64,000 nt of DNA from Desulfovibrionaceae bacterium (GCA_031551515.1 JAVBNL010000023.1:23048-87047), one strand, 5' to 3'; counted from the stretch's first letter, positions 30,171-52,286 are shown. The notes: generated by a model not told the origin, from the letters alone. Program-made: numbers and translations.

Positions 30171-30198
30171 CGCTCGCTCCTTGGGTAACGGTAACGCC

Positions 30199-30696
30199 TC
30201 AGCGGCTTTTGATCTTTTCTTTCAGCGCTTCGATAAGCCCGCCCTTTTGCACCAGTTCCAGAATGTGCGCGGGCAGTTTGCTGCACGAATAGGTCGTGTT
30301 CTGCGTTTCGTTGCGGATGGCCCCCGCCGTAAAATCCAGCAGCAGAACGTCGCCCGGCTTGATTTTACCCGCATCGTCGCATTCCACCACGGGCAGCCCC
30401 AGGTTGATGGCGTTGCGGTAAAAAATGCGGGCGAAACTTTTGGCGATGACCGCGCCCAGGCCCAGATGTTTCAGGGCCAGCGGCGCAAGTTCGCGGCTGG
30501 AGCCGGAACCGAAGTTGTCGCCCGCAACAATCATATCACCAGACCGCACGCGGGCCGCGAAACCGGGGTCCACGCTGCTCATGGCGAACTTCGCCCCTTC
30601 TTCGACCGAAAGTTCCATGTACTGCGGGGGCGAGATGATGTCCGTATTGATGTTGTCGCCGAAAACGTGAGCTTTGCCCTTGCGTGTACTTTGCAT
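30199..30696 (-). CDS. Aconitase-family small subunit (LeuD/HacB-like)
   Basis: 165 aa with [14 protein letters not shown]...[10 protein letters not shown]. Confidence 0.85.
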
Positions 30697-30706
30697 GCGC
30701 GCCTCC

Positions 30707-31972: not shown

Positions 31973-32041
31973 ATCGTACCTTCCTTTTCCGCTTGGACAG
32001 TTTACGCCGCGTGACCGCAAGAGTCACGCGGCGCTAAAGCC

Positions 32042-33406: not shown

Positions 33407-33433
33407 AGTCTGCTCTCCTTGTTGTGGTCGCGG

Positions 33434-34192: not shown

Positions 34193-34329
34193 GGTCGCTC
34201 CTTTTATATCGTCTGTTCCGCGCGCCGCCGCGCCTGAAAAAGGGTGTCGAGCAAGATGCCCGCTGTGAAACCGCAGGCGGCGTCCCGTTTCGGGACCGTT
34301 CCGAGTGGGGGATAAAGCGGCGCTAGCCG

Positions 34330-35484
34330 CTAATAAACCGATTTACGCACATATGCATACCCATCCATGATTTTACGCGCCGTGCGGTATACGCCGATGC
34401 GTTTCATGACGGTTTCGCCGTTCTTCGTTTCCGCTTCCGCCTCAACGGGTATGATCCCGCCGGGGTGGCCTATCTGCACGGTCATTCTGCTCTTCGCCTC
34501 TTCGCGCAGCACGTCCCAGGCCACGGTGCCGGGTATGCGCACGGCCGCGCCCGTGCAGACCGTGCCGGTAACCGGGTAGGTCTTGTGCATCTTGAGCATA
34601 AACAAGAGGCGGGAGACCAGATCCACTTCCTTCGCCTTCACCGTGCCGCCGCTGATGGTCGTGTAATCAGCGGGTTCGCTGACGATGGCGAAAAACGGCG
34701 TGTAGGGGCTTTTGGTGGCCGCGTCTTCGGGTTTGTCGACCAGGCCGCACCAGACGGCCGCCTGCCCCCGGATTTTTTCGATCAGCGCCATGAGGTTCTT
34801 GTCCGCTTCGATGGCGGCCGGGCTTTCCGTGCCTTTCAGGCCCAGCGAACGCGCGTGGATGAAGACCAGCGGGTTGCCCGCGTCCACCAGGGATATGGTG
34901 TAGTCTTTGCCATCGACGCTGATGACGTCTTTGACGTTGCCCGTGGGCAACAGCTTGCCCGTGGTCGGGCCGGTGACGTCCGACCAGTCCAGGGTAATCC
35001 GCGCGCCGGTGCCTGGGCAACCGTCAATGGCGTAGTCGCCGCAGACGGAAGCTTTGCCGTTTTTGACCGGCACTTCGGCGATCAGGATATGATTGCTGTT
35101 GGTCAGGTGAATGCGCACGGTGGTAACGGGTTCCACCGGTTCCACCAGGCCTTCGTCAATGGCGAAAGGGCCCACGGCGGCGGAGATGTTGCCGCAGTTG
35201 CCCTGGTAATCGATGAATTCCGTCTCGAAGCTGACCTGGCCGAAGGTGTAATCCACATCCGCATCCGGCCGGGAAGCGGGTGAGATGATGGCCAGCTTGC
35301 TGGTCAGCACGTCCGCGCCGCCGAGGCCGTCTATCTGGCGCACGTCGGGGCTGCCGTATATGGCGCGAATGACCGCGTCACGTTTTTGCGGGTCTTTGGG
35401 CAGTTCGTTCTTCATGATGAAAACGCCCTTGCTGGTGCCGCCCCGCACGATGGAACACCGTACCATTTCCATTTCAGGATGCAT
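34330..35484 (-). CDS. PrpF-family isomerase (2-methylaconitate / oxalomesaconate / methylitaconate isomerase family)
   Basis: RBS GGGAGGAAG precedes ATG 35484. The N-terminus is MVRCSIVRGGTSKGVFI. Confidence 0.85.
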   Translation of the reverse strand: MHPEMEMVRCSIVRGGTSKGVFIMKNELPKDPQKRDAVIRAIYGSPDVRQIDGLGGADVLTSKLAIISPASRPDADVDYTFGQVSFETEFIDYQGNCGNISAAVGPFAIDEGLVEPVEPVTTVRIHLTNSNHILIAEVPVKNGKASVCGDYAIDGCPGTGARITLDWSDVTGPTTGKLLPTGNVKDVISVDGKDYTISLVDAGNPLVFIHARSLGLKGTESPAAIEADKNLMALIEKIRGQAAVWCGLVDKPEDAATKSPYTPFFAIVSEPADYTTISGGTVKAKEVDLVSRLLFMLKMHKTYPVTGTVCTGAAVRIPGTVAWDVLREEAKSRMTVQIGHPGGIIPVEAEAETKNGETVMKRIGVYRTARKIMDGYAYVRKSVY

Positions 35485-35500
35485 GCTCTTCCTCCCGGCT

Positions 35501-36496
35501 TTAGCGCGCTTGAGAAACCGCGACGGCAAGGGCGACCGTGGCCCCCACCATGGGGTTGTTGCCCATACCCAGAAAACCCATCATTTCCACGTGAGCGGGC
35601 ACCGAAGAAGACCCCGCGAACTGCGCGTCACAGTACATGCGGCCCACAGTGTCGGTCAAACCATACGAGGCCGGGCCCGCGCCGTTGTCGTCCGGGTGCA
35701 CGGTGCGGCCCGTGCCGCCGCCGGAAGCCACGGCGAAAAAGTTCCGTCCGTTGTCGCCGCACCATTTTTTATAGGTGCCCGCCACGGGGTGCTGAAAGCG
35801 GGTCATGTTGGTGGAGTTGCCGGTGATGCAGACGTCCACTTTTTCACTGACCATAACGGCCACGCCTTCCGGCACGTCGTCCGCGCCATAGCAGCGCACC
35901 GCCGCCCTGGGCCCGGCAGAGAAAGCCCGCTCCTCTTTGATGGCCAGTGTTTCGGCGGCGTAGTCGTATTCTGTGCGCACGTAGGTGAAGCCGTTGATGC
36001 GCGAGATGATGTACGCCGCGTCTTTGCCCAGGCCGTTCAAGATGACCCGCAGGGGGGTTTTGCGCACTTTGTTGGCCGATTGCGCGATGCCGATGGCCCC
36101 TTCGGCCGCGGCGAACGATTCATGCCCGGCCAGAAAGGCAAAACAGCCCGTCTCTTCGTGCAGCAGCCGGGCGGCGAGGCGCCCGTGCCCCAGGCCCACT
36201 TTGCGGTGATCGGCCACGGAACCGGGCAGGCAAAACGCCTGCAAGGCTTCGCCTATAGCTTCCGCAATGGCCGGGGCTTCTTTTTCGCCCCGCGCGACGG
36301 CGACGGCCGCCCCCAAGGTGTAGGCCCAGCAAGCGTCGTCAAAACAGATGGCCTGAATGCCCCGCACCAGGGCGAAAGGGTCCACGCCCCGGGCCTGAAC
36401 CCGCGCGCGGGCGTCTTCCAGCGAAGCTATGCCGTTCGCCTGCAAACAGGCCGTTATCGCGGGCATGCGCAGTTCTTTGTTTTCAAATGCGGTCAT
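35501..36496 (-). CDS. GGGtGRT-family protein (function unknown)
   Basis: Contains the eponymous ASGGGTGRTVHPDDNG motif. RBS GGAGG is present. Confidence 0.8.
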   Translation of the reverse strand: MTAFENKELRMPAITACLQANGIASLEDARARVQARGVDPFALVRGIQAICFDDACWAYTLGAAVAVARGEKEAPAIAEAIGEALQAFCLPGSVADHRKVGLGHGRLAARLLHEETGCFAFLAGHESFAAAEGAIGIAQSANKVRKTPLRVILNGLGKDAAYIISRINGFTYVRTEYDYAAETLAIKEERAFSAGPRAAVRCYGADDVPEGVAVMVSEKVDVCITGNSTNMTRFQHPVAGTYKKWCGDNGRNFFAVASGGGTGRTVHPDDNGAGPASYGLTDTVGRMYCDAQFAGSSSVPAHVEMMGFLGMGNNPMVGATVALAVAVSQAR

Positions 36497-36510
36497 GGTC
36501 GCCTCCGGCC

Positions 36511-37188
36511 CTATTCCCTACGGGGGTCAATGGTTCTGACGGCTTCGCCGAAGCGGCCGTAAACGCCCTTTGCCGCATCGTACGCCTGGTCGGGGCTTTG
36601 CCCCGCCGCGATCTGGTTCATCATCTTGCCCAAGTTGACGAATTCGTACCCGATGATTTCGCTGTTTTCGTCCAGCGCCAGGCGGGTCACATAGCCTTCC
36701 GTCATTTCAAGATAGCGCGGCCCGTTGGCCACAGTGCCGTACGAGGTGCCCACCTGGCTGCGGCAGCTGGAGCCGAGATCTTCCATGGCCGCGCCGATAG
36801 GCAGGCCGCCGTCGGAATACGAACTTTGCGTGCGGCCGTACGCGATGGTGGTGAACAGCGATTTCATGGCGCTGTTGGTGGCGTCGCAGACAAGGTCGGT
36901 GTTAAGAGCCTCAAGCAGCGTTTTGCCCGGCAGAATCTCTGCGGCCATGGCCGCGGAATGACTCATGCCGGAACAGCCGATATGCTCAATGAGCGCTTCG
37001 TGCACGATGCCGTCTTTGACGTTCAGCGTCAGTTTGCAGGTGCCCATTTGCGGCGCGCACGTACCACAGCCGTGGGCGAAACCGGATATATCCGCGACTT
37101 GCTTTACGCGCGTCCATTTACCTTCCTGAGGAATGGGCGACGGGCCGTGATTGGGCCCCTGCCGGACGATACAGAGGGTTTCAGACAT
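36511..37188 (-). CDS. NifU/IscU-N-terminal-like Cys-containing protein
   Basis: FAHGCGTCAPQMGTC...HIGCSGMSHSAAMAAEILPGKTLLEA resembles the IscU scaffold fold. It is the first gene of the operon. Confidence 0.7.
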   Translation of the reverse strand: MSETLCIVRQGPNHGPSPIPQEGKWTRVKQVADISGFAHGCGTCAPQMGTCKLTLNVKDGIVHEALIEHIGCSGMSHSAAMAAEILPGKTLLEALNTDLVCDATNSAMKSLFTTIAYGRTQSSYSDGGLPIGAAMEDLGSSCRSQVGTSYGTVANGPRYLEMTEGYVTRLALDENSEIIGYEFVNLGKMMNQIAAGQSPDQAYDAAKGVYGRFGEAVRTIDPRRE

Positions 37189-37244
37189 GAACGACGCCCC
37201 TTTGCTGAAAATTACGAAATGGATGCATGTGCCGCTCTCCTAAT

Positions 37245-37260
37245 AACAAGAAGCATGCCA
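37245..37260 (-). promoter_or_regulatory. Candidate sigma-54 (-24/-12) promoter for the nine-gene operon
   Basis: The minus strand reads TGGCATGcttcTTGTT against the consensus TGGCACG-N4-TTGCW. The spacing is correct with one mismatch in the -12 GC. It lies about 57 nt upstream of ATG 37188. Confidence 0.45.
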
Positions 37261-37481
37261 AGTGCCCGGGCAGCCCCTATCCACGCCTTTCGGCCGCAGC
37301 CGCCTCGGCGCGCGGAACACGGCCCACCCCTTTTGGTGTTTCATTTTCATCCGGCTTGTTGCCGGGCAGAAATAAAAACAGCGATTTTGCAACGGCGCGC
37401 GCAAGAATTTTTGCAGTGAACTTGGTGGAATAGCAGCATAATATGTGATTTTTTCAGTAATTAAACAACAATTTCCATTTA

Positions 37482-37497
37482 TGGAACATTGCTTGCT
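37482..37497 (+). promoter_or_regulatory. Candidate sigma-54 (-24/-12) promoter upstream of the activator gene
   Basis: TGGAACAttgcTTGCT with correct GG-N10-GC spacing, about 54 nt upstream of ATG 37551. Confidence 0.45.
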
Positions 37498-37550
37498 AAA
37501 AACCGCCGCCTCCGGTAGCTTCCACAAACACCCTGCCAAGGAGTCGACTC

Positions 37551-39458
37551 ATGAACGCCCCGGTCCGCATCGCGCTTATCGCTACCTACCCCGACATCGC
37601 CCAGCTGTTTCGCGACCTGGCGCAGGACAGGCCGGATATCGTGGCGCGGGATGTTTACGCCTCTTTTGACGACGCCATTAAGACCGCAAAAAAGCTGGAA
37701 CGCGAAACAGACGTCATTCTCAGCCGGGGGGGCACGGGCGAGTTCATACGCCGTAGCGTGGGCATACCCGTGGTGCAGTTGGCCATCACCCCGTTCGACG
37801 TGGTGCTGGCCATGCAAAAGCTGCCGCCGGGGGTTACGGAATTCGCTCTTTCCCACTACAACTCGCCCATTTACGGGCTGGAAGAAATACAGAAAATCTA
37901 CGGCGTCACCATTCACGAATATACGTTTGAAACACTGCGCGACATAGAAGAGAGCGTTGTCGACATTCAGCGGCGCGGCATCAGAAACGTGCTGGGCGGC
38001 CACGTCATAACCAACTTGCTGCGCGACCACGGCATATTCGGGGTGACCCTCAGCGCGGGGCTTGATACCGTAAACCGGGCGCTGAACGAAGCCATGTCCA
38101 TCGTTTTTGAAGCGCGCAAAGAACGCAACAGAACGGCCAGGCTGGCCGCCGCCTTCAACTCCATCACCACCGGGCTGGTGCTGACGGACGACAAAAACAA
38201 GGTACTTGCCTGCAACCCCGTGGCAAGCAAGCTTTTTGGCCGGCAACACCCCGTGGGCAGCAGCTTCACGGACGACGCGGCCGACCCCATGCTGCGCGAG
38301 GCGCTGCGAACCCGCACGGCCCGCACCAACTATATCTGCAACATCCGCGACACCCTCATCAACGCCGGGCACATGCCCGTGTATCTGGATAACAATTTCA
38401 TCGGCTTCGTGCACACCTTTGAAGACGTCACGAAAATCCAGACGCTTGAGCAGGCCATACGCAAACAGATGCACGACAAGGGTTTTGTGGCGCGGTACCG
38501 CTTTTCCGACATTTTCACCACGGACCCCACCCTGGAAATGCTCAAACGCACGGCCCAATCATACGCGCGCAGCAAATCGACCGTGCTGATAGAGGGCGAA
38601 TCGGGCACGGGCAAGGAACTTTTCGCCCAAAGCCTGCACAACGCCAGCCCCAGGGCGGATATGCCCTTTGTGGCGGTCAACTGCGCGGCCATACCGGCCA
38701 ATCTGCTGGAAAGCGAACTCTTCGGATACGAAGCCGGGGCCTTTACCGGCGCGAAAAAAGAAGGCAAACCCGGCCTTTTTGAAATAGCCCACAACGGCAC
38801 CATTTTTCTGGACGAAATCGGGGATTTGCCCAGGGAGTTTCAAGCGCGGCTGCTGCGCGTGCTGCAAGAAAAAGAGTTCATGCGCGTGGGCGGCGGCAAG
38901 GTCATGCCCGTGGATGTCAGGGTCATCAGCGCCACCAACAAGAACCTGCGCGAACTGGCCGCCAAAGGGGAATTCAGAGAGGACCTCTTTTACCGGCTGG
39001 GCGTATTCACCCTGACCCTGCCGCCTTTGCGGGAACGGGCTTGCGACATAGACCCCCTGTGCCGCAAATTTTTGGCCGACCAGGGACTGACGCAGGATAC
39101 GGGGATCGTGCGCCGGTTGCTGCCCCGGCTGCTGGCGCATAGCTGGCCCGGCAACATACGCGAACTGCGGAATATTTCCGAACGCATGGCCCACCTCGTC
39201 AATACCGGCGGCGACTATTCGCCGGAAGAGCTCGACCTGACTCTGGGCCTCGGCTCGCCCAAACACAACGGTGATTTTTACGCGCGCATCGACCTGGAAC
39301 AGCAGCGCGGCCTGAAGAGCATTGTGGATACAGTTGAAAAGCAGGTCATCGGCCACTTGCTGCGGCTGCACGACAACAAATACGCGGATGTGGCCAAACG
39401 CCTGGGCATAGGCCGCACCACGCTCTGGCGCAAACACAACCACGCGGACGCGCCCTGA
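37551..39458 (+). CDS. Sigma-54-dependent transcriptional activator with PrpR-type N-terminal sensor domain, PAS, AAA+ and Fis-type HTH
   Basis: RBS AAGGAG. PrpR_N-like block VILSRGGTGEFIRRSVGIPVVQLAITPFDVV. AAA+ motif GESGTGKE and sigma-54 contact motif GAFTGA. C-terminal HTH VAKRLGIGRTTLWRK. Confidence 0.9.
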   Translation: MNAPVRIALIATYPDIAQLFRDLAQDRPDIVARDVYASFDDAIKTAKKLERETDVILSRGGTGEFIRRSVGIPVVQLAITPFDVVLAMQKLPPGVTEFALSHYNSPIYGLEEIQKIYGVTIHEYTFETLRDIEESVVDIQRRGIRNVLGGHVITNLLRDHGIFGVTLSAGLDTVNRALNEAMSIVFEARKERNRTARLAAAFNSITTGLVLTDDKNKVLACNPVASKLFGRQHPVGSSFTDDAADPMLREALRTRTARTNYICNIRDTLINAGHMPVYLDNNFIGFVHTFEDVTKIQTLEQAIRKQMHDKGFVARYRFSDIFTTDPTLEMLKRTAQSYARSKSTVLIEGESGTGKELFAQSLHNASPRADMPFVAVNCAAIPANLLESELFGYEAGAFTGAKKEGKPGLFEIAHNGTIFLDEIGDLPREFQARLLRVLQEKEFMRVGGGKVMPVDVRVISATNKNLRELAAKGEFREDLFYRLGVFTLTLPPLRERACDIDPLCRKFLADQGLTQDTGIVRRLLPRLLAHSWPGNIRELRNISERMAHLVNTGGDYSPEELDLTLGLGSPKHNGDFYARIDLEQQRGLKSIVDTVEKQVIGHLLRLHDNKYADVAKRLGIGRTTLWRKHNHADAP

Positions 39459-40982: not shown

Positions 40983-41597
40983 TTACTTAATGAAGCCGAC
41001 CTGCTTGCTGATCTCGGCAATGGCCTTCTCTTTTTTCTTGTTGTAGACGACCTTGTTTTCTTCAAACAAATTGCGGCCCTTGGTGTCGATGGAAACGATC
41101 AGCGGGCCGAACTCTTTCACCCGGCAGACCCACAGGGTTTCGGGCATGCCCAGGTCGCGCCACTGGGCGTCTTCGATCTCTTCAACCTGGGTCGCGGCCA
41201 CAACGCCGCAGCCCGCGGGAAAAACCAGGTGCAGGGCTTTGTTCCTCACGCAGCCTTCCACCGTGCCCGCGCCCATGCCGCCTTTGCCGACCACCAGTTT
41301 GACGCCGGTCTGGGCGATGAATTCCTTTTCAAACTTTTCCATGCGCATGCTGGTGGTGGGGCCGATGGAGACCATCTCGAACTTGTCGCCCCCGATGGGC
41401 CGCACGATGGGGCCGGCGTGGAAAATGGCCAGGCCCTTCAGGTCCACGGGCAGGGGGCGTTTTTCTTCGATCAGGCGCCGGTGCGCCACGTCGCGGCACG
41501 TTATCAGGTACCCGTTCAGATAGACGATGTCGCCCACGTTGATATCGGCAATATCCGCGTCCTTGACGGGCGTGGTCAGAATCTTCTTCGCGCTCAT
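40983..41597 (-). CDS. Fe-S hydro-lyase beta subunit (class I fumarate hydratase / L(+)-tartrate dehydratase family)
   Basis: [21 protein letters not shown]...GAGPIV...VVGKGGMG, with a 4-nt overlap with the alpha subunit gene. Confidence 0.85.
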
Positions 41598-42499
41598 ATG
41601 ACGGCCCCCTTGTGGGATTTGATGACGTGCTTCAGGTCTTTGTCAAACACGATGTGGCCCCGGCGGTGGGACCAGCAGCCGACGTTCACGGCCACCCCGA
41701 TGGTGGAGGGGTGCCGGGCGGTGTTTTCAATATGCACGCCCATGACCGAATTCACGCCGGACATGCCCTGGGGACCCAGGCCGATGCTGTTGATGCCGTC
41801 TTCAAGCAGTTTTTCCATGCCCGCCGCGCGCGCGTTGGCGTTATGCGTGCCGATGGGCCGCATCAGCGCTTTTTTGGACAGCAGCGCCGCCGTTTCCACG
41901 GATGTGGCCACGCCCACGCCCACCAGCAGCGGAGGACAGGCGTTGAGGCCGTAGGTAGTCATGATGTCCAGCACAAACTCGGTCACGCCTTCGTACCCGG
42001 CGCCGGGCATCAGCACCATGGCCTTGCCGGGCAGGGTACAGCCGCCGCCAGCCATGTAGGTGTAAATTTCAACGTCATCGCGGCCGGGCACGATTTCCCA
42101 GAACAACGTGGGCGTGCCCGTGCCGATGTTTTTGCCGGTGTTGAATTCGTCAAAAGTTTCCACGCTGTTGTGGCGCAGGGGGGCTTTGACCGTGGCGTCA
42201 AGCACGGCTTCGGTCAGGATAGCTTCCAGGTTGGCCAGCAGGGGGAAATTCGAGCCGCACTTGACCCAGAATTGCAGCACCCCGGTATCCTGGCAACAGG
42301 GGCGGTTCAGCTCCATGGCCAGTCGCTGGTTCTCGGCCATGGTGTCGTAAATGGTTTTGGCCAGCGCACTGGTCTCTTCGGCCCGCAGGTCGGCCAGCTT
42401 TTTTTCAACGTCGTCAGGCAGTTTCTTGCCGACCAGGGCGACGAACTTGCTCATCACGCCGGTCATCTCGCGGACATGCTGTTCACTTGCCATCTGCAA
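41594..42499 (-). CDS. Fe-S hydro-lyase alpha subunit (class I fumarate hydratase / L(+)-tartrate dehydratase family)
   Basis: [16 protein letters not shown] and [11 protein letters not shown] are motifs typical of the alpha-type catalytic domain. Confidence 0.85.
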
Positions 42500-42695: not shown

Positions 42696-43592
42696 CTAAG
42701 CTTGAGGAAGCAATTCTGCCATAAAGGTTCTTGCCGCGCGGGAAAGCTGAATGCCCTTGGCCGTGACCACGCAGACCGTGCGCGGGGGAACGGGTTCGGG
42801 CGTTTTCACCACAAAGGCCCTGCCCGCCGCTATGCTTTCTTCGGCAAAGGCGCTGATGACCAGGCCCACCCCCATGCCGCGCTCCACACAGGGAATGATC
42901 AGCACCGTGGTTGACAGCTCGATCATGGGGCTGAATTCAAGCCCCCGCTCGTGGAAAAAAGCCCCCTGAAAGCGCCGCGTGGCCGTGCCCTGCCCCAGCG
43001 CGATAAGGGGCAGGCCGAGCAGTTCGTCCCAGGGCACCACCCTGCCCTGCAAATGCGCATATTGCGGCCCGGCGATAAAGGCGTCGCGAACCTCGCCTAT
43101 CTCGTGCGCGGTGCAGGCGCCGTCCATTTCCGGGGGCAGCGGCTTCATGACCACGGCCAGGTCAAGGCGTTCTTTGCGGATGTCTTCCAGCAAATGAAAG
43201 GCCTGCGCCGCCCGGGTAGTAATTTTTATCTGCGGGTGCCGCTCGCGGAACGAAGCCAGGCCGGGCAGCAAAAACCGCTGCAGGATCAGGTCGGAAGAGC
43301 CGATGCGCACTTCCCCGCGTTCCAGGTCCAGCAGGCTTTGCAGCTTGTTCTCGCCGGCGGCCAGCGTTTCGCAGGCGCGTTCGGCATAGGGGAAAAGCTC
43401 CTTGCCTTCCGGCGTCAGGGTCATGCCTTTGGGCAGACGGATAAAGAGAGCGCAGCCGAGCAGTTCTTCCATCTGCCGGATGCGCTTGGTCAGGGCGGGC
43501 TGCGAGATGAACAGCGCCTGCGCCGCGTGGGTCAGGTTGCCCGCGCGCGCCACATGGTAAAAGGCCTTGTAATATTCCAGGTCGATTTTCAT
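42696..43592 (-). CDS. LysR-family transcriptional regulator
   Basis: YYKAFYHVARAGNLTHAAQALFISQPALTKRIRQMEELLG plus a substrate-binding domain. Confidence 0.85.
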   Translation of the reverse strand: MKIDLEYYKAFYHVARAGNLTHAAQALFISQPALTKRIRQMEELLGCALFIRLPKGMTLTPEGKELFPYAERACETLAAGENKLQSLLDLERGEVRIGSSDLILQRFLLPGLASFRERHPQIKITTRAAQAFHLLEDIRKERLDLAVVMKPLPPEMDGACTAHEIGEVRDAFIAGPQYAHLQGRVVPWDELLGLPLIALGQGTATRRFQGAFFHERGLEFSPMIELSTTVLIIPCVERGMGVGLVISAFAEESIAAGRAFVVKTPEPVPPRTVCVVTAKGIQLSRAARTFMAELLPQA

Positions 43593-43685
43593 GGGTGCCG
43601 CCCGCAAGAGTCCGTTCCGGCGAAAATGGATGCGCCGCCTTTCGGTCTATGCCAGGAGGGATAATTTCGCAACAGGCAGGCCCGG

Positions 43686-45494
43686 TCAAGGCCGGACAGC
43701 CTGGTCCAGCCAGGAAAGCCGGGCCAGCGCGGAAACGAAATCCGCATCAAAACCCTTGCCTATAAAGACGAGAAAGCGATCCGGGCCGGGCGGCGAAAGG
43801 GGATATTCCAGCAAGAACGCGCCCGCGGCGTATTGAACGATCATCGGGCCGCTTTCTTCCAGGCTGTCCACAATGCCTTTGACGCGGGGGGCCCTGCCCT
43901 GCGCAAGCCGGATAACGGCGTTCAGCTCTTCCACGCTCACAGGGCGCGTGACAGTAAAAGCCAGGGATGCGTAGCCCTCATCCTGGTGTGTCACGCGACG
44001 CGCCGGCCGTGGCCGCAATGCCGCGGCCGCCTGCGAGCCGGGGCCGCCCCGCCGCTCGTGCAGGCCATCCAGAGCGCCAAAGGAAATACGCCCGTGCGTT
44101 GCCGCGAAAACGACGGCTGCCGGGTTCATGCGTTTCAGAACGCCCATGATCCGGGCTGAGCTGTCGCCTGTAACCGTGTCGATCTTGTTGCATACCAGCA
44201 CGTCCGCCCGCCGGATCTGTTCCCCTGCAAGCCCGGCCGGACCTGCCGGGTGTTCCGCCAAAACCCTGTCCATGTCGAGGCAGTCCACCAACGAGATGCA
44301 CAGCCCCGGCCGGACCATGTCGGCCAGATCTGCCAGCGCGTCCGCAACCGCGCCGGGGTTCGCAAGCCCGGTGGTCTCAAGAATGATCTGCTCGGTCGGC
44401 AGCAGATCCATAAGCCGCCGGATGGCTGGGCGCAGGCTGTCCGCCAGCGTGCAGCAAACACACCCCTCATCCAGGGCTTCGCTGAGCGTTTCATGCTGCA
44501 ACAGAAAGGAGTCAAGACTTTTCGCCCCAAGCTCGTTTTGCAGCACCGCGGTATGCCGGTCATGGTTGTGCAGCCAGGCCAGCCATTCGGATACAAACGT
44601 CGTTTTGCCGGACCCCAGAAACCCGGAAACCACGTGCAGCACAGGGCGGGAATCATCCCATTCCGGCTCTTTGACCGCGAACGCGCGGCCGGAAAACGGC
44701 CGGAACGCGGAGCCGCTTTCATGCGGCGGCGAAAGATCCGGCAGGGGCGAGCCGAAAGCGGCGGAAAAAGCGGTTCCGGCAAGCGCCTCTCCTTCCATGA
44801 TCCCCCAATCGCCGTCGGCCGTGAAGGCCGTAACCGGAAATTCTCTGCGCGCCACAGCCCAATGCGGTTTGGTTTCCAGCAGCGACGCCGCCGAAAGCCC
44901 CAAAAGGCGGAAACACGGCAAAGCCAGGCGCAAGGCGGGCACATCGCAAGCCCAGCCGCCTTTCGCGACGCCGAACCCCACGCCGGGGGCCGCGCCCTCC
45001 GCAGGCAGGCCGTCCACCGCGACGACACGCTGCCGCGCCGGGGCTTCCAGGTCAAACGAAAGCCCCGTCAAGTCAAGGCGCGTGTTCAGGCCCAAAAATC
45101 CCAGAAAAAACAGGTTGCTGCTTTCCCGGCGGGTGAATTCCCGGATACCGGCAAAGTAATCCGGCGCGGCCGCGCGTTGCCGCGCATCCGGAAGATAGCG
45201 CGCGAGAACCGCCTCTTCCGGGTCCGGAAAATAGAACAGGCTGAAACGAGAACGCAGGCAGGCCGCGTCCCGCTCTTCCCCAAGAAAGGCAAGGCCGTAC
45301 ACGCCGTCGCGTCCGTTCGCGCGCATGGTCCAGGCGTACCCGGTGCCCATGCACGGGCGCAGACCGCGCCAGCCGATCCGGCGCGCGTTTCGCCTGTCCA
45401 GATGAATCCCGGCGGTCAGAACGGTCAGCGTGTCCGCGCCGACCGAATCATGGCCGGCGCGGATGCCGAAAGGAAAAAGCGCCTGGACGTTCAT
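43686..45494 (-). CDS. COG0523/CobW-family G3E GTPase (metallochaperone-like) with unknown ~290-aa N-terminal domain
   Basis: P-loop GFLGSGKTT, metal motif GCVCCT, ETTGLANP and NKID. CobW_C-like tail. The N-terminal 290 aa carry no motif I recognise. Confidence 0.75.
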   Translation of the reverse strand: MNVQALFPFGIRAGHDSVGADTLTVLTAGIHLDRRNARRIGWRGLRPCMGTGYAWTMRANGRDGVYGLAFLGEERDAACLRSRFSLFYFPDPEEAVLARYLPDARQRAAAPDYFAGIREFTRRESSNLFFLGFLGLNTRLDLTGLSFDLEAPARQRVVAVDGLPAEGAAPGVGFGVAKGGWACDVPALRLALPCFRLLGLSAASLLETKPHWAVARREFPVTAFTADGDWGIMEGEALAGTAFSAAFGSPLPDLSPPHESGSAFRPFSGRAFAVKEPEWDDSRPVLHVVSGFLGSGKTTFVSEWLAWLHNHDRHTAVLQNELGAKSLDSFLLQHETLSEALDEGCVCCTLADSLRPAIRRLMDLLPTEQIILETTGLANPGAVADALADLADMVRPGLCISLVDCLDMDRVLAEHPAGPAGLAGEQIRRADVLVCNKIDTVTGDSSARIMGVLKRMNPAAVVFAATHGRISFGALDGLHERRGGPGSQAAAALRPRPARRVTHQDEGYASLAFTVTRPVSVEELNAVIRLAQGRAPRVKGIVDSLEESGPMIVQYAAGAFLLEYPLSPPGPDRFLVFIGKGFDADFVSALARLSWLDQAVRP

Positions 45495-45512
45495 TTACCG
45501 CCAAGGCTGGGG

Positions 45513-46667
45513 CTAGGCCCCAAAGGTTATGATGTCGCCGTTGCCGAGGTACACGTCGGATTTCGAGCGGAAGCGGGCCGTTCCGTGCACCACGGGATAC
45601 TTGGCGTCCACGAACTTGCGGGCGGTAATAAGGCCGGTGCAGTGGTTGCAGCCGATTTTCTGAATATCCCATTTTTTCAGGCCGATGACCAGATCGTCGT
45701 ATTTGGGATCCCAGTCGTCAAAAGGAGAAATATGCAAGCCGCCATACAGGCCGTAGAACTTGTCCCGCTCGTACTTGAGTTCGCGATAGGCCGTGTCCGC
45801 GAACAGGATGATGCCCTGATGGCAACAGCCGGTCACGCTGAGCAGGCCCAGGTCCTTGATGTTGAAGTACAGGGACATTTCACCGTAGACTTTGAGGATG
45901 ATGGGTATTTCGAACAGATAGAGAGCCATGCCCGGCTGTACGGGGTGCAGTCCCTTGGCCACTTCCGTGACCTTGCCCCGGTGCCCGGCGTCTTTCAGGT
46001 ACTGCCGGCCGGAAGGGAAGAAGGTGTGCGGGTGATACACGTGTATGTCCGGCCTGTATTTCATGGGCACGGGCACGCCCCAGTAGTGGTCCATATGTTC
46101 GTGCGAAATCAGCAGAGCCTTGATTTCGTTGTCGGCCAGCATCTTGTCTATGCCTTCGCGTTTGAAGGACTGATCCATCCACTCATAGGACCAGCCGGTG
46201 TCCAGCAAATATTTGCTGACCTCGCCCTCCAGGGATTCCACCTCGATAAGGCAGGAAAAGCCGCCCAGGTTATCGGGGCTGACAGACAGAGTTTTTGAAA
46301 CCTCCCAGGCTTTTTCCAGATTATTCGGCAAGTATTCCTTGATCTTGGCGATGCCTTCCTGATAGCTGCCCTTACCGACCCCCTTGCCGTTGCCCAGAGG
46401 GCCCCAGTTCAGCGTGTACTGGTCGACGAGCAGGCCGCCGGCTTTGCGCACGTCCTGCATGAATATATCGTTGTAAAACCAGCTGGTTTCAGAAATGTTG
46501 GTTATTTTGACGGATTTGCAAACTCCGAAATCCGTCATCTTTCGTTGCACCTTGGGCAGAAATGTTTCCCGCATGGGTGAATATGAGAAGAGGCCCATGG
46601 CGCCCAGCGCTCCCACGCCGAGGCCCAGCGTCGCTCCTTTAATAAAGTTTCGTCTGCTTATGGACAT
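45513..46667 (-). CDS. Tat-exported MBL-fold metallo-hydrolase (COG1237-like)
   Basis: Twin-arginine signal MSISRRNFIKGATLGLGVGALG; HxHxDH motif ISHEHMDHYWG; C-terminal NHCTG. Confidence 0.85.
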   Translation of the reverse strand: MSISRRNFIKGATLGLGVGALGAMGLFSYSPMRETFLPKVQRKMTDFGVCKSVKITNISETSWFYNDIFMQDVRKAGGLLVDQYTLNWGPLGNGKGVGKGSYQEGIAKIKEYLPNNLEKAWEVSKTLSVSPDNLGGFSCLIEVESLEGEVSKYLLDTGWSYEWMDQSFKREGIDKMLADNEIKALLISHEHMDHYWGVPVPMKYRPDIHVYHPHTFFPSGRQYLKDAGHRGKVTEVAKGLHPVQPGMALYLFEIPIILKVYGEMSLYFNIKDLGLLSVTGCCHQGIILFADTAYRELKYERDKFYGLYGGLHISPFDDWDPKYDDLVIGLKKWDIQKIGCNHCTGLITARKFVDAKYPVVHGTARFRSKSDVYLGNGDIITFGA

Positions 46668-46679
46668 GGGGCGCCTCCG

Positions 46680-48083
46680 TTACGGAATAAGATTGATGCT
46701 TTTGCTGACAACGGGAATAAGCCAGACCGCCAGGAAATAGCCGGCCACGCCCACGGCCACGCCCGTCACCACGCCGGGCACCATGCTCGGCTGCCACAGG
46801 GGTTCAGCGGCAAAGCGGGCGTGTTCGGCTTCTTTTTCTTCGGCGGTTTTGGCTTCCAGCTTCCAGCCGGGCCAGTTGTCCATGAACCAGTGGTTGATGA
46901 TCCAGATGTTGAGCAGCCAGATGGTGGGGATCATGGGGAACTGCTGCGGGTGCGAGAAGCCCTTCTGCGTGCCCAGGAAGTTGTGCGCGGTGGCATAATA
47001 CAGGGCGTAGAGGGCCAAGCCCGCGACAATGACGATGCCGGTGCGGATCAGGATATTGGCTGCCGTGGAATAGCTGCGCGGCCAGTTGTCACAGTAAAAC
47101 TGGAGGAAAATTGCCGGCACCAGGAAGAATATGGCGGTTTCGCCCACATGCAGCCAGCGCCAGTCAGGGGCGGCGTCGCGGCGATGCCCGCGGATGGCCT
47201 CGCCCCAGGCCAGTTCCTGCGCGTACCAGAAAAAGAAGCACAGGGCCAGGGAAATGGCTATGATGCCGAAAAAGAGCGCCCAGCGTCGGGTCCAGGGGCT
47301 TTTGATCAGGCAGAATGGCCAGCGTTCCCAGATGCCTTCCATCAGCCAGACCACCACGGTGCAGCACATGATCCAGGCGATGTGAAAGTTGCCGGAAACG
47401 GTTTTGGCAAAATCTTCCCAATAGGGCGGGGTGATGGATGTGAACGCTTGCCAGGGATAATACAGGATGCCCATGTGCGAGTGCATGGTCAGAAAATAAA
47501 TGATGGTGCTCAAAAAGAAGGTCAGCACCCAAATGCTGAAGCCGCGCACCGGCTGAGGCATGCGCGCCCAGGGTTCGCCTTCCATGGCCACGATCCAGGC
47601 CGGGGAGAGCCAGGAAGCGATGGCCGCGAACATCAGACAGGCTGTGGCCGCATATTCTTCCGCGAAGAACTGGGTTACGCCGGGCAGCTTGGTCAACTGG
47701 TCGGGGTTGAAATAGGCCAGGCCGTAGTTGCCGAGAATGCCTTCAAAAAAACCTTTGATCAGCAGCAGCATGACGGCCACCGCAACCAGGGTCAGCACCA
47801 GCCCTTTGGTCACGGGATGCGCCCGCCGCAGCCAGGCGCGGTTGAACGGCCAGAAATCGAAAATATAGGCCATCCAGATCAGAATGATCAACAGCCAGCG
47901 GCAATAATTGTAGCCCACATAGGGAGTGTACAACCTCATGATGCCGCGCGGGTCCTGAAAAACCCACCAGGTGGCGGCGAAAATGATCAGAGTGAAAACC
48001 AGGTTGACGAGGGCGGGCATGGGACCGCCCCATCGTTTCACGAGCTTGCGCTCTTCAAGGTAGGGGATATTGCCGTTTTCCAT
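46680..48083 (-). CDS. Trp-rich polytopic integral membrane protein, function unknown
   Basis: 467 aa with at least 10 hydrophobic segments. No family recognised by eye. Confidence 0.7.
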   Translation of the reverse strand: MENGNIPYLEERKLVKRWGGPMPALVNLVFTLIIFAATWWVFQDPRGIMRLYTPYVGYNYCRWLLIILIWMAYIFDFWPFNRAWLRRAHPVTKGLVLTLVAVAVMLLLIKGFFEGILGNYGLAYFNPDQLTKLPGVTQFFAEEYAATACLMFAAIASWLSPAWIVAMEGEPWARMPQPVRGFSIWVLTFFLSTIIYFLTMHSHMGILYYPWQAFTSITPPYWEDFAKTVSGNFHIAWIMCCTVVVWLMEGIWERWPFCLIKSPWTRRWALFFGIIAISLALCFFFWYAQELAWGEAIRGHRRDAAPDWRWLHVGETAIFFLVPAIFLQFYCDNWPRSYSTAANILIRTGIVIVAGLALYALYYATAHNFLGTQKGFSHPQQFPMIPTIWLLNIWIINHWFMDNWPGWKLEAKTAEEKEAEHARFAAEPLWQPSMVPGVVTGVAVGVAGYFLAVWLIPVVSKSINLIP

Positions 48084-48188
48084 ACAGCCTCCTTGTCACG
48101 GAAAAAACGACCAACGATATCGCCCGGAATCCGGACGGAACACCCATGATCTGCGGCAGACAAGTCACGCCCCGCGGGGCGGAAGAGT

Positions 48189-48863
48189 CTATGTCGAAGC
48201 GGTTCCCGGCGTCTCAGGAGAGCGGCAGACCCGCAGCAGCAGTTCCGCGTAGCGCATGGCGTGCGCCCCCGCCTCTTCCGGCTGGCCCCGGCGAACGCCG
48301 CCGAGAAGGCCGGCCAGTTCCGCAAACAGCAGTTCCCGGTCGGCCTTGGAGGCCAACCCGATGCATTCGGAAAAGAAACGGCCTTGCGGAATCACCTGCC
48401 CGGCGGCCGCAGCCACGCGCGCGTTGTGCGCCCATTCCGCCACGGCCCGCAGAAAGATCCGCTGCGCCCGCGCGAACTCGGCGGCCGAGCCGGTATGCAC
48501 GGCAAGACCCACATGGCTGAGCTTCGACTCAAGTTCCAGCAGGCCCGCCGGCCGCGCCCAACGGGCGCACAGGGCCGCCACGGGCGGGAACAGGGCCGTC
48601 AGGCCGGCAAGGCGGGCGTGAAAATCCTGGCGCGTATTGAGGCTGAGCTGTCCGGGCACGGCCTGCACAAAGGTGCCGCTACCCCGCCGCGAACCGAGAA
48701 TTCCCCTTCCCTGCAGAACCTGAAGGGCGTTGCGCAAAGTGTTGCGGCTGACCCCGAGGGATTGGGCCAGCTGGCGCTCTGGCGGCAGCCTTTCATACAG
48801 CTTCCACCCGCCGGACCGGATACGTTCTTCTAAAAGAACCTCTATTTCCTGCTGCTTTTCCAT
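48189..48863 (-). CDS. GntR-family regulator (FadR/FCD-like)
   Basis: LPPERQLAQSLGVSRNTLRNALQVLQGRGILGSRRGSGTFV. Confidence 0.8.
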   Translation of the reverse strand: MEKQQEIEVLLEERIRSGGWKLYERLPPERQLAQSLGVSRNTLRNALQVLQGRGILGSRRGSGTFVQAVPGQLSLNTRQDFHARLAGLTALFPPVAALCARWARPAGLLELESKLSHVGLAVHTGSAAEFARAQRIFLRAVAEWAHNARVAAAAGQVIPQGRFFSECIGLASKADRELLFAELAGLLGGVRRGQPEEAGAHAMRYAELLLRVCRSPETPGTAST

Positions 48864-48966
48864 AGTTCGCACCAAGAGCGCGACTCGCTCTGCCTGCAGA
48901 ATACGTGAATCACGCTTAATGCCAACAAATAACTGATACCTAGGTTGTAAATTTATATCATGCCAA

Positions 48967-49008
48967 TATAAAAAAACAAAAAAGCCCTATTGGCTCTACC
49001 AATAGGGC
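48967..49008 (-). terminator. Rho-independent terminator of the PAS/GAF-like gene
   Basis: gccctattgg / ctcta / ccaatagggc, followed on the minus strand by TTTTTTGTTTTTTT. Confidence 0.75.
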
Positions 49009-49040: not shown

Positions 49041-50291
49041 TCAGGGCCGGGGCCTGCCCCTGAAGACGGCGCCCGCGAATGCCGGAGCGAGCACCTCATA
49101 ATGCTCGGCGGCCGCCAGAGAGAAAGCGCCGGGGTGCACGGAGCAGAGGATGAGCACGGCCCGCAGCCGGTTGTGGCGATAGAACGGACGCGCGAAATAC
49201 GACCTGATTCCGCGGGGTACGAAAAGAACCCAATCAATGGATTTAATGCTGTCCAAGGTATCGTCCACCACAAGATAATTCAGGCCGTGGCGCTCGATAT
49301 TCTGGGCAATGGTCCCTTCATAGGCGAAGGTCTGGCCCCACATGTCCGCGCAGGGTTTTCCCGCGCCGTATACGGTCACATGGCCCTTGTCCGCGTGGAT
49401 GTCGGAATAGATGATGCCGTCGTAGGCGTGCGGCTCATGGCTGGCCAGCATGCATTCCAGGGCTTCGCGCAGGGAAGAGGCGCGAGAAACCTCGCGCACG
49501 AGCGCGTCCGCGGGAGTACCGGGAGAGGGACGGCGACCGCCGCCGGGCGGGCGCTTCTGCCCCGCGACGTTCAGAAAAGAAAGCCGCAGCAGGCGTCTGC
49601 TGCCGGCGGAAGCGGCGGTCAGGCGCATTTCGCTGTTGACCGTCAGGCCGCTGGGCAATTTCAGGGTCAGCGCCCCGCCCCATACCCCTTCGGCAACGGC
49701 GGTTTCCAGCGCTTGCCGCACCGTGGCGGCCGCGCCGCGAGGCACCAGAGACTCGAAAGGCAAGCCGTTTTTCACAAGGTCGCCGCCCAGCAGAATGGCC
49801 GCTTCCTGGTTTCGGGCGACCACGGTTCCGCTTGCGGGGTCGATCAGCAGCACGGGGTAATTAGCTACCGAACGGCATTGCGGCCAATGGTTGCCGTCGA
49901 GGCCTTCCGCCTCCGGCAGTATGTATTCCGGGGCGAGTTGCAGGGTTCCGTGGTAGAACCAATTTTCTCCGGAACCGGGCCAGCCTTGCAGAAAAAGCCA
50001 GCCGCGAGGGTCCGCCGAAAGGCGAAAGAGCGCGCTGGCGGGAATTCCTGCGGCCATGGCTTCCCAGAACTCCGTCAATTGCAGATGGTCTTCCGCCAGA
50101 ATCTGCCTGCGCCGGAAGGAAGCGTCTTTCAGCAGCAGGGCCGTGTTTTCGCCCAGGTCAGGGTGCCGCCAGTCTTTGACGATCTCAAGGCGCGACCGGG
50201 GCACTTCAATGCTCCAGATAAGACCGGGAAAATGCGCGGCCCATGCGGCCGCGCTTTCGGATTTTATGTGGAGAGCCGGTTTCGTGTACAT
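49041..50291 (-). CDS. Cytoplasmic sensory-domain protein (PAS-like + GAF-like), no output domain
   Basis: PAS-like block PVLLIDPASGTVVARNQEAAILLG, and a C-terminal region with a GAF-like pattern. No kinase, cyclase or HTH motif. Confidence 0.6.
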   Translation of the reverse strand: MYTKPALHIKSESAAAWAAHFPGLIWSIEVPRSRLEIVKDWRHPDLGENTALLLKDASFRRRQILAEDHLQLTEFWEAMAAGIPASALFRLSADPRGWLFLQGWPGSGENWFYHGTLQLAPEYILPEAEGLDGNHWPQCRSVANYPVLLIDPASGTVVARNQEAAILLGGDLVKNGLPFESLVPRGAAATVRQALETAVAEGVWGGALTLKLPSGLTVNSEMRLTAASAGSRRLLRLSFLNVAGQKRPPGGGRRPSPGTPADALVREVSRASSLREALECMLASHEPHAYDGIIYSDIHADKGHVTVYGAGKPCADMWGQTFAYEGTIAQNIERHGLNYLVVDDTLDSIKSIDWVLFVPRGIRSYFARPFYRHNRLRAVLILCSVHPGAFSLAAAEHYEVLAPAFAGAVFRGRPRP

Positions 50292-50418: not shown

Positions 50419-50934
50419 TTACAAACCGTATTGGTATTTGACGGCCATGACCAGCGAAATATCGTTATGGCCAAGGCTGGCCGGACGCTTCACCACGCCG
50501 CTCGCGCCGCGCAGGGCCGCTTCCGCCGCCCGGTCGAGAATCGCGTTTCCGGAAGAATTGGCCAGCGAAATACCGTGAAAGGTTCCGTCGGGCGACACGG
50601 TGAAAGAAAACCAGGCCATCCCGATCAAACTGTTGTTCGCTTCGGCCGAGATGAACCGCCGCGCATGAATGGCATTGGAAACGGCGTCAAGATAGGCGTT
50701 GCGTTCTTTCCGCCGGTTGTCAGCCCCGTCGCCCGGCGGCAGGGTTTCTGAAATGCTCTCAATGGCCAGGGTGACGGTTTCGCTGAACATGGGAGCGGAC
50801 GAGGTCAATTCCTGGCTGAGGCGCTGCCCCATGCCCGGCCGGGCCGTCGTTTGCGCCCAGTGCGCCTGCAACAGCATGAAGTGCAGAAAAAGAGAGATAC
50901 ACACCGCCGCGCGGAACCGCGCCAGGTCCGTCAT
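50419..50934 (-). CDS. TonB-family C-terminal-domain protein
   Basis: N-terminal TM segment (AAVCISLFLHFMLL). The C-terminus, GMAWFSFTVSPDGTFHGISLANSSGNAILDRAAEAALR, is TonB_C-like. The ATGA overlap with exbD fixes the start at 50934. Confidence 0.7.
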   Translation of the reverse strand: MTDLARFRAAVCISLFLHFMLLQAHWAQTTARPGMGQRLSQELTSSAPMFSETVTLAIESISETLPPGDGADNRRKERNAYLDAVSNAIHARRFISAEANNSLIGMAWFSFTVSPDGTFHGISLANSSGNAILDRAAEAALRGASGVVKRPASLGHNDISLVMAVKYQYGL

Positions 50935-51428
50935 TGCCTGCCCCGCCGCTGCCCTGCTTCGTTTTCTCCGGTTTCGCCCGCGCCTTCCTGCCCCGTGGCG
51001 ATGACCAGTTTGTCTCCGCCCATGGTGCGCACCACGTCGACGATGCGCACAAGCGCGGCCACCGGGGCATTGGGGGCGGCCCGCAGCACGAGGCTTCTGG
51101 GCTCCGTAAACCCGGCTAGCCTGTCGGTCTCCGTCCGGTAGCGCAAAAATTCGCCGAGCCTCTCTGGGGCCAAGGTCTTTCCTTCGCAAGAAAGGCTGCC
51201 GTCCGCGGCCAGACGCAGTTCAAGTATCCGCCCGGCCAGGGGGCGGCTGCTCTTGGCGGGTGGCAGTTCGACATCCATGCCGCGCACGGCGAAAGCGGCC
51301 GCCACGATGAAAAAGATGAGCAGAATGAAAACCACGTCGAGCAGCGGGGTAATATCAGGCCCTTCCGCCTCGTCCTGCGCGAAAAGGCCGGCAGGCCTGA
51401 AAGGGGCGGGGCACGATCTAGGCGGCAC
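50931..51428 (-). CDS. exbD: ExbD/TolR-family protein
   Basis: DITPLLDVVFILLIFFIV motif. GTG start. Confidence 0.85.
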   Translation of the reverse strand: MPPRSCPAPFRPAGLFAQDEAEGPDITPLLDVVFILLIFFIVAAAFAVRGMDVELPPAKSSRPLAGRILELRLAADGSLSCEGKTLAPERLGEFLRYRTETDRLAGFTEPRSLVLRAAPNAPVAALVRIVDVVRTMGGDKLVIATGQEGAGETGENEAGQRRGRQ

Positions 51429-52050
51429 GGCCGTTCTCCCCGGGTTCTTCGCAAAGCGCGAAGAACCCGCTGGTCAGACGGTACAGGGCACTGATGACGA
51501 GCCGCTTGCGGCTGAGAAACCAGTACTGGACCAGCAGCGCCGGAATCGCGATGGTCAACCCGGCCGCCGTGGTTAAAAGCGCCTGCCAGATGCCCTCGGC
51601 CAGCACCATCAGGTCCACGCCGCCCTGGGCCGCGGCAAGGCGGGAAAAAGTGTTGATCATGCCCAGAACCGTACCCAAAAGGCCCAAAAGCGGGGCCGCC
51701 CGGACGATCACGCCGAGCAGCGGCAGGCGGGTATCAAGCCTGCCGTTGATTTCCTGGGCGAAGATATCCAAAACTTCGTGATTCCGAACAGCATCGTCGC
51801 CGCCCCGGCACATCCGCCGGAGCTCTTCGAAATAGGGGCCGAATACCGGGTGAGAAACGGGCAGAACCGCATCAAGGGCTCTCGCGTCCCGGCTGCTCAA
51901 AGCGGCGGTAAGCGCGGCGGCCTGTTTCGCGGACGGAAACCCGAGCCCTGCATAAAACATGGCGCGCTCAATGGTTATGGCCAAAGCCAGAGCCGAAAGG
52001 GCGAGAAGCGGCCACATCACCCATCCGCCCTGTTGCATAATTGTTGCCAT
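51418..52050 (-). CDS. exbB: MotA/TolQ/ExbB proton-channel protein
   Basis: GGWVMWPLLALSALALAITIER... and RAAPLLGLLGTVLGMI. Confidence 0.85.
   Translation of the reverse strand: MATIMQQGGWVMWPLLALSALALAITIERAMFYAGLGFPSAKQAAALTAALSSRDARALDAVLPVSHPVFGPYFEELRRMCRGGDDAVRNHEVLDIFAQEINGRLDTRLPLLGVIVRAAPLLGLLGTVLGMINTFSRLAAAQGGVDLMVLAEGIWQALLTTAAGLTIAIPALLVQYWFLSRKRLVISALYRLTSGFFALCEEPGENGRAA

Positions 52051-52209: not shown

Positions 52210-52286
<77 letters not shown>

Follow-up and report, generated by a model that had tools for sequence, protein, structure and literature searches.

What role does a COG0523-type GTPase play beside an exported metalloprotein and a membrane protein that belongs to no recognized family? 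This question is raised by a gene cluster of a Desulfovibrionaceae bacterium (GCA_031551515.1 JAVBNL010000023.1:23048-87047). The whole stretch of 64,000 nucleotides (nt) is called the window here, and all coordinates of the cluster refer to it. A reading made from the sequence alone had described four genes, coding for a GntR-type regulator, a Trp-rich membrane protein, a metallo-beta-lactamase (MBL) protein with a signal for twin-arginine translocation (Tat) and a CobW-family GTPase. It proposed that the GTPase metallates the MBL protein in the cytoplasm before export and that the membrane protein acts as partner.

Our comparison of related loci points to an envelope module, in which a periplasm-facing complex of MBL protein and membrane protein would be served by a dedicated cytoplasmic metallochaperone. 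We assign this reading a probability of roughly 45%. Comparative evidence supported the sequence-only reading in part, namely with regard to synteny, the novelty of the membrane protein family, the dedicated chaperone and the control by GntR.

The gene cluster and its conservation

The four core open reading frames (ORFs) are all located on the minus strand. The genes of the GntR-family regulator (48189-48863), the membrane protein (467 amino acids (aa), 46680-48083), the MBL protein (384 aa, 45513-46667) and the GTPase protein (602 aa, 43686-45494) follow each other with gaps of 105, 12 and 18 nt, in agreement with the 12-105 nt reported before. For the regulator the ORF spans 48189-48875 with an ATG at 48863. 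The module is larger than these four genes. It extends upstream to the gene of a 416-aa protein (49041-50291, minus strand) and to the genes of ExbB (51418-52050), ExbD (50931-51428) and a short TonB (50419-50934), which occupy 50419-52050 on the minus strand and were assigned by the Pfam profiles MotA_ExbB, ExbD and TonB_2/TonB_C. A perfect 10+10 hairpin with a subsequent T-run (48984-49008) stands between the operon and the upstream gene, and a promoter-like site lies ahead of the GntR gene. The earlier picture was right about the four genes, but overlooked the 416-aa gene, the TonB trio, a separate N-terminal domain of the GTPase protein and a small protein with an RR motif that is encoded in related loci.

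One genome per GTDB species was scanned. A close relative was present in 393 species, and 80 of these loci were kept. They are part of a main clade of 86 loci, to which a sister clade of 90 loci from metagenomes and metagenome-assembled genomes (MAGs) was added. The locus scans used narrow alignments, as broad ones were too divergent. The loci originate from Desulfovibrio, Bilophila, Mailhella and other Desulfovibrionaceae, from Parasutterella and Sutterella, and furthermore from Leptospirales/Spirochaetota, SAR324 and the Desulfobacterales Desulfobacter and Desulfosarcina. The best match was found in a Desulfovibrionaceae MAG (93% identity).

The gene of the membrane protein is followed by the MBL gene within 200 nt in all loci with enough sequence (73/73), and the long GTPase gene comes next on the same strand in 69 of 70 loci. 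The genes are syntenic across several phyla, so the objection that they might not be neighbours in relatives fails. In median identity to the proteins of the window, the membrane protein (70%) and the MBL protein (68%) stand well above the GTPase (34%), GntR (34%) and the 416-aa protein (36%). Judged by these values, the membrane/MBL pair is under much stronger constraint than its neighbours. The difference between about 70% for the pair and about 34% for the neighbours argues against the view that the conservation stems from a recent transfer of the block in its entirety.

In Leptospirales a gene for a lipoprotein of about 124 aa, without family match, is inserted between the MBL and GTPase genes (L060:12736-13110, L066:12739-13113, L069:12681-13061).

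MBL protein, GTPase and membrane protein

The twin-arginine signal and the HxHxDH site assigned earlier to the MBL protein were both confirmed. The Tat motif MSISRRNFIKGATLG was detected with TIGR01409 (21.8, cut-off 16.7). Its residues R5, R6, F8 and K10 are invariant among the homologues, and the signal is kept in the main and the sister clade. The signal peptide (aa 1-27, 46587-46667, minus strand) consists of SRRNFIKG and a Gly/Ala-rich h-region, in accordance with the S/T-R-R-x-F-L-K motif and the weakly hydrophobic h-region of Tat substrates. A conserved GAMG(L/A)(F/Y)SYSP segment comes after the h-region, where no clear AxA site for signal peptidase is visible. The HxHxDH site is H189-E-H191-M-D193-H194, and the Pfam profile Lactamase_B scored 30.6 (cut-off 22.7). 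Together with the His and Cys ligands further downstream this places the protein in the metallo-beta-lactamase superfamily. Invariant among the homologues are H189, H191, D193, H194, H229, C281, H283, H312, C340, H342 and C343.

The nearest PDB sequences are 7dck, 2p4z and 3h3e (TM1679), all uncharacterized proteins of COG1237 type with generic deposit names, found with profile E-values from 1e-17 to 4e-05. They share the motifs HxHxDH, GCxH, GGxH and HC(T/S)G with the MBL protein. In contrast to the MBL clade of the module, which carries the Tat signal and a conserved N-terminal ISETSWF segment, the solved members have 248-284 aa, align from near the N-terminus and give no indication of a Tat leader. 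Only the main clade has an insert of about 40 aa, which is also missing in the solved COG1237 members.

For the GTPase, the motifs GSGKTT and CxCC (GCVCCT) named in the sequence-only reading were found again as GFLGSGKTT (Walker A) and DEGCVCCT, accompanied by ETTG and NKxD. The G-domain with these motifs is encoded at 44109-44636 (minus strand). The assignment to the CobW family holds for aa 287-588 only, with Pfam cobW at aa 287-462 (2.8e-33, 115.5 bits, cut-off 20.7) and CobW_C at aa 509-588 (2.9e-08, 33.9 bits, cut-off 22); aa 1-285 form a separate conserved domain, which had been overlooked. Among 32 homologues the three Cys residues of CxCC and the G-motifs are nearly invariant. P-loop with Walker A, CxCC and CobW_C domain, the marks of COG0523 proteins, are thus all present. 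CxCC and P-loop define the COG0523 metallochaperones (PMC2770081). The named NCBIfam equivalogs CobW, ZigA, YjiA and MRF were rejected, with 72.9, 77.6, 78.8 and 35.7 bits at cut-offs of 332, 600, 361 and 375, respectively. By its sequence, the G-domain represents a distinct COG0523 subfamily.

The N-terminal domain (aa 1-265, 44700-45494, minus strand) was present in all 72 aligned fusion homologues. A search at E<=1e-30 gave 465 homologues of the GTPase protein; the 120 listed had mostly about 575-635 aa, most covered 93-100% of the query, and most contained the domain. The full-length protein served as query, since the domain alone had no matches in the word-indexed protein database. Its invariant residues include R34, R38, G41-W42-R43-G44, W55 and F89-P90. 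No Pfam profile matched the domain. An AlphaFold2 model was obtained with a pLDDT of 89.5 and a pTM of 0.87, and a Foldseek comparison of this model with PDB folds resulted in no match at E<=0.001 (best TM 0.18). The best Foldseek rows, bilin reductases and the haem-binding HtaA (probability <=0.38, TM<=0.18), were taken as noise. According to the model, the domain has a confidently predicted and probably novel fold. The COG0523 survey of 2009 describes proteins that begin with the G-domain, and the terms lactamase, TonB, Desulfovibrio and fusion were searched for in it without a match (PMC2770081).

The membrane protein contains 31 Trp residues (6.6% of its 467 aa). As stated in the sequence-only reading, it matches no recognized family. 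No Pfam or NCBIfam profile matched even at E<=10, no PDB sequence was found, and a Foldseek comparison of the predicted structure with the PDB gave nothing at E<=0.001 (best TM 0.24). Hence, neither the profile nor the structure search that had been suggested brought up a known, unrelated family. With only 145 clusters at 50% identity, found by an exhaustive HMMER search among 1.84 billion representatives, the protein forms a small and isolated family. The 120 homologues listed have about 470 aa and are 65-83% identical, and full-length divergent members with 24-47% identity are without the last helix.

The AlphaFold2 model (pLDDT 75, pTM 0.80) shows about 11 transmembrane helices. For 22 family members, K and R residues were counted on both sides of the membrane by means of the model helices, with 13.9 against 5.4. 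By the positive-inside rule, the N-terminus is therefore placed in the cytoplasm and the loops L5, L7 and L9 probably face the periplasm. These loops are long and almost invariant (L5, TMHSHMGILYYPWQ...PPYWE..A.TVSGNFH; L7, RG.RRD.APDWRWLHVGE; L9, GTQKGFSHPQQFPMIP). The conserved H201, H203 and H312 are close to the periplasmic face, and five conserved W-P turns are located on the cytoplasmic side. A possible internal five-fold hairpin repeat reached hhalign probabilities of 1-78% and could not be established.

Many homologues of the membrane protein carry the JGI name 'AAT family amino acid transporter'. The cluster could accordingly be read as a catabolic operon with an AAT/APC amino-acid transporter and an MBL hydrolase for an amino-acid derivative, and GntR/FCD regulators commonly govern acid catabolism. 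We consider this hardly credible. The JGI label was rejected because neither AA_permease nor any other Pfam or NCBIfam profile matched even at E<=10 and no LeuT-type fold was found; ApcT ranked only 47th in the fold search with the membrane model (TM 0.15, E 1.8). Moreover, no catabolic genes are conserved in the loci.

Sister clade, regulation and proposed mechanism

The sister clade was traced via divergent relatives of the membrane protein. Its membrane/MBL pair shows 37-40% identity and a reversed gene order. Usually the genes of a cytochrome c, the Tat-MBL protein, the membrane protein, a small protein and a stand-alone protein of about 300 aa follow each other, sometimes with a NifX-like protein, and a PAS-sigma54 activator is transcribed divergently. 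The COG0523 domain was found in 73 of 86 loci of the main clade and in none of the 90 sister loci. Homology between the stand-alone protein of the sister clade and the N-terminal domain of the GTPase protein was detected by hmmsearch (8e-24 and 6e-14); a third stand-alone member was linked by blastp (5e-10). The tail of the stand-alone protein contains CC or CxC in 58 of 61 complete copies, of which 22 also have at least two His residues (e.g. ...STCGCH, ...CGCEDHEHH and ...GCCCCH).

The sequences indicate that the same putative recognition domain carries either a Cys/His tail of a metal-binding kind or a CxCC GTPase. This domain-for-tail swap is the strongest evidence for the 602-aa protein as a metallochaperone dedicated to the module. 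With regard to the metallochaperone role proposed earlier, the dedication of the GTPase thus gains comparative support from its own N-terminal domain and from the Cys/His tail of the sister clade.

In the PAS domain of the sister activator a conserved Cys-rich stretch, CFEVMRAE.CE.GCP, was observed (loci such as L119, L137, L159 and L164).

The partners in the sister clade allow a different interpretation, in which the pair would be an oxidoreductase facing the periplasm, its redox-active metal centre being inserted by the chaperone and the membrane subunit being an anchor or a quinol/proton partner as in MsrPQ or NrfD. Tat export is typical of cofactor-bearing redox enzymes. In 48 of 90 sister loci the MBL gene comes after that of a monohaem cytochrome c (CxxCH), a PF02579 NifX-like gene is found downstream in 33 of 90, and the PAS-sigma54 activator is encoded alongside. 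C281, C340 and C343 of the MBL protein are conserved beside its His ligands, and the membrane protein offers H201, H203 and H312 near the periplasmic face. In the clade of the window, however, cytochrome c is missing (0/86 loci) and the NifX-like protein is rare (2/86). The Cys/His pattern is also common to cytoplasmic COG1237 proteins, no haem or quinone motif was found, and the fold of the membrane protein did not match NrfD or MsrQ. A redox enzyme is thus improbable, somewhat more so than the metal import discussed below.

The regulator (Pfam GntR 4.8e-18, FCD 1.2e-06) is of GntR/FadR type, with a winged-helix GntR domain, an FCD domain and an upstream palindrome. The palindrome TTGGT-N3-ACCAA (<=1 mismatch) occurs at 74 sites within 300 nt upstream of GntR genes, often twice per gene, compared with 23 sites in the remaining 1.37 Mb. 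In the window, ATTGGTAGAGCCAAT at 48989-49003 is the predicted operator, which is enclosed by the hairpin mentioned above. The conserved operator supports the description as a GntR-regulated cluster and suggests that the GntR-type protein autoregulates the module as a repressor. Homologues of the 416-aa protein (29-55% identity), which carry weak PAS_9 matches, are encoded in 51 of 80 genome loci of the main clade and in 57 of all 86; the protein of the window has no Pfam match of its own. The gene adjoins the GntR gene and is often divergent from it.

The Zur and Fur boxes that had been suggested for a search were not found near the cluster in a search by consensus sequence, which is a weak negative. 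Comparison with Rfam revealed no riboswitch in any of the sequences covered, namely the window, seven Sutterellaceae loci and a long Parasutterella leader. The Parasutterella loci are without the GntR and 416-aa genes and have a non-coding leader of >250 nt ahead of the membrane gene. This leader contains a conserved block, GTTTCTAGACTGA, without Rfam match (L022:2001-2444, L025:9560-10003, L043:9560-10003).

COG0523 genes are often Zur-regulated and found near TonB components (PMC2770081, PMC11672702). The cluster could hence be a Zur-type response to zinc starvation or for zinc sparing, with the COG0523 protein as general zinc chaperone and with neighbours that are co-regulated, but functionally separate. 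This is very unlikely in view of the operator of GntR type, the missing Zur/Fur-like box (by the same consensus search) and the family-specific N-terminal domain, which strictly co-occurs with the pair. The scores for the ZigA, YjiA and CobW equivalogs were far below the cut-offs, and the linker between the domains is, by eye, not His-rich.

The ExbB-ExbD-TonB trio comprises ExbB, ExbD and the C-terminal domain of TonB according to Pfam and NCBIfam. Of 61 loci, 36 contain the trio, and in 32 it comes immediately behind the GTPase gene; the window and its closest relative (L010) have it upstream. ExbB was found in 41 of 86 loci of the main clade and in 0 of 90 sister loci. A clustering of 89 loci, which covered these loci only, gave no conserved family of the size of a TonB-dependent receptor.

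The linkage to the TonB trio in 36 of 61 loci also favours metal import. Here the membrane protein would be a permease for a metal or chelate, the periplasmic MBL protein would process a chelate delivered via a TonB-dependent receptor of the outer membrane, and the N-terminal domain would dock the GTPase on the cytoplasmic face of the permease to receive and distribute the metal. The five W-P turns could serve as docking surface, and the module is without catabolic genes. Arrangements of this kind are known from cobW, which is found beside the putative cobalt transporter genes cbtAB, and from EfeUOB, which combines a Tat-exported enzyme with a permease. COG0523 genes beside TonB components are also described in Zur regulons (PMC11672702). 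On the other hand, the membrane protein has no known transporter fold, the clustering of the loci showed no conserved receptor gene, and neither a Fur/Zur box nor a riboswitch was found. The TonB trio is present in 0 of 90 sister loci, where the chaperone-like protein is retained, and a permease would not usually be conserved at about 70% identity across phyla. We regard metal import as unlikely.

A further component is a small protein of about 90 aa. In 46 of 77 loci of the main clade its gene immediately precedes that of the membrane protein, and the protein was also found in 41 sister loci. Its N-terminus mimics the twin-arginine motif (SRRDFLRG or SKRxFxK), but charged residues come next instead of a hydrophobic stretch. 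The C-terminal domain, YP(D/E)(E/D)..E.A..GI(E/D), is conserved and has no Pfam or NCBIfam match. The protein is not encoded in the window; examples are L026:9664-9933, L060:9633-9926, L091:3447-3737 and L093:9209-9496.

For the envelope module we propose the following mechanism. The Tat-exported MBL metalloprotein and the 11-helix membrane protein would form a periplasm-facing membrane complex, with the conserved loops of the membrane protein directed to the periplasm. The N-terminal domain with its new fold would recognize the module, and the COG0523 GTPase would hold a metal at CxCC until GTP is hydrolysed and then release it. As client we favour the MBL pre-protein, which would be loaded in the cytoplasm before Tat export. 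The linked ExbB-ExbD-TonB genes suggest that the complex acts on a substrate which enters through the outer membrane by TonB-dependent transport. The genes, domains, motifs, synteny, the operator and the domain-for-tail swap are seen in the sequences; physical contacts, the direction of metal transfer, the identity of the metal and the catalytic activity are what we infer in this proposal.

Several observations weigh against it. One locus (L079) is without GTPase. A pure role in maturation does not account for the TonB trio, and no receptor family is conserved in the loci. No site for a metal-responsive regulator was found in the Fur/Zur consensus search. The N-terminal domain resembles neither TorD, DmsD, NapD nor another solved fold in the Pfam and PDB fold searches, and its putative partner could be the membrane protein instead of the MBL protein. 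The cytochrome c and NifX-like partners of the sister clade suggest that the enzyme is perhaps not a hydrolase.

A more far-reaching proposal is about as unlikely as metal import. The pair might represent an unrecognized class of periplasm-facing membrane metalloenzyme instead of a hydrolase with a permease. A chaperone specific to the family, in which the new-fold domain is joined to a Cys/His tail or to a COG0523 GTPase, would have to assemble the metal centre of the pair in the cytoplasm. The sister-clade enzyme would be wired to a c-type cytochrome and a NifX-like carrier, as a new family of MBL-fold respiratory or detoxifying oxidoreductases, and the small RR protein might be a decoy in Tat proofreading.

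Neighbouring genes and comparison with known systems

Outside the module, a tRNA gene (52213-52286, minus strand) is located directly upstream of the ExbB-ExbD-TonB genes. On the other side, a two-subunit class I fumarate hydratase (Fumerase and Fumerase_C, 40983-42499) is encoded with the gene of a LysR-type regulator (42696-43607) immediately upstream. A minus-strand block at 28534-39458 contains AcnX (28534-29754), a second MBL protein (252 aa, 33434-34192) and PrpF (34330-35529) and is adjoined by a PrpR_N-sigma54 activator on the plus strand (37551-39458). By eye, the second MBL protein has no Tat-type N-terminus. The AcnX/PrpF block is a separate organic-acid pathway. An ORF of 754 aa (15646-17910) showed coding-like GC contents at the codon positions and no Pfam match at E<=1e-5.

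To our knowledge, COG0523 GTPases are ubiquitous and very few of their clients are known. The module offers them a defined and genetically tractable candidate client, an exported metalloprotein in locked synteny, and the sister-clade tail in place of the GTPase is a natural experiment on the contribution of the GTPase. It contains four unnamed families, the membrane protein, the N-terminal domain, the small RR-motif protein and the 416-aa protein. Two of them were modelled, the N-terminal domain confidently and the membrane protein with moderate confidence, and neither was matched among solved structures. The module belongs to sulfate reducers and bacteria of the gut and is present in about 390 species representatives, including the gut genera Bilophila, Desulfovibrio, Mailhella, Sutterella and Parasutterella. 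As these genera are linked to human health, its substrate may matter for gut physiology.

No account of the module emerged from full-text literature searches on 7dck, COG1237, tw9814, the combination of COG0523 with Tat or MBL, and CobW/ExbB/Sutterella/Bilophila, in line with the earlier impression that it was undescribed. By sequence, only the G-domain, the MBL core, GntR and the TonB trio appear to match described families. The COG0523/G3E proteins, such as CobW, ZigA/ZagA/ZNG1, YjiA and the nitrile hydratase activator, share with the GTPase the P-loop G-domain, CxCC in switch I and CobW_C, as well as the expected role of GTP-dependent metal delivery to a client. They differ from it in several respects. 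The G-domain, which is N-terminal in described members (PMC2770081), is preceded in the module by a 265-aa domain that matches no known fold. The scores of 73-79 bits stand against equivalog cut-offs of 332-600. Furthermore, the gene is fixed after the Tat-MBL gene, under control of GntR type and not of Zur or a B12 riboswitch.

The Zur-regulated clusters of Gram-negative bacteria also have COG0523 and a TonB component co-located (PMC11672702). In contrast, the module has a GntR operator and no Zur box, and its full ExbB-ExbD-TonB trio travels with the MBL/membrane pair. In MsrPQ, PsrABC/NrfD-type systems and EfeUOB, the gene of a Tat-exported periplasmic metalloprotein likewise stands beside that of a polytopic membrane protein. 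However, the fold of the membrane protein studied here is unmatched among them, and the best candidates, including the alternative complex III subunit C, reached TM<=0.24 at E>0.1.

HypA/HypB with [NiFe] hydrogenase and the chaperones TorD, DmsD and NapD follow a similar logic, with insertion of the cofactor in the cytoplasm and export of the folded protein to a membrane partner. They show no similarity to the module in sequence or fold; its client has an MBL fold, and its putative targeting module and GTPase form one chain. In general, the module resembles by analogy the chaperone-assisted maturation of an exported metalloenzyme, a logic that is already known.

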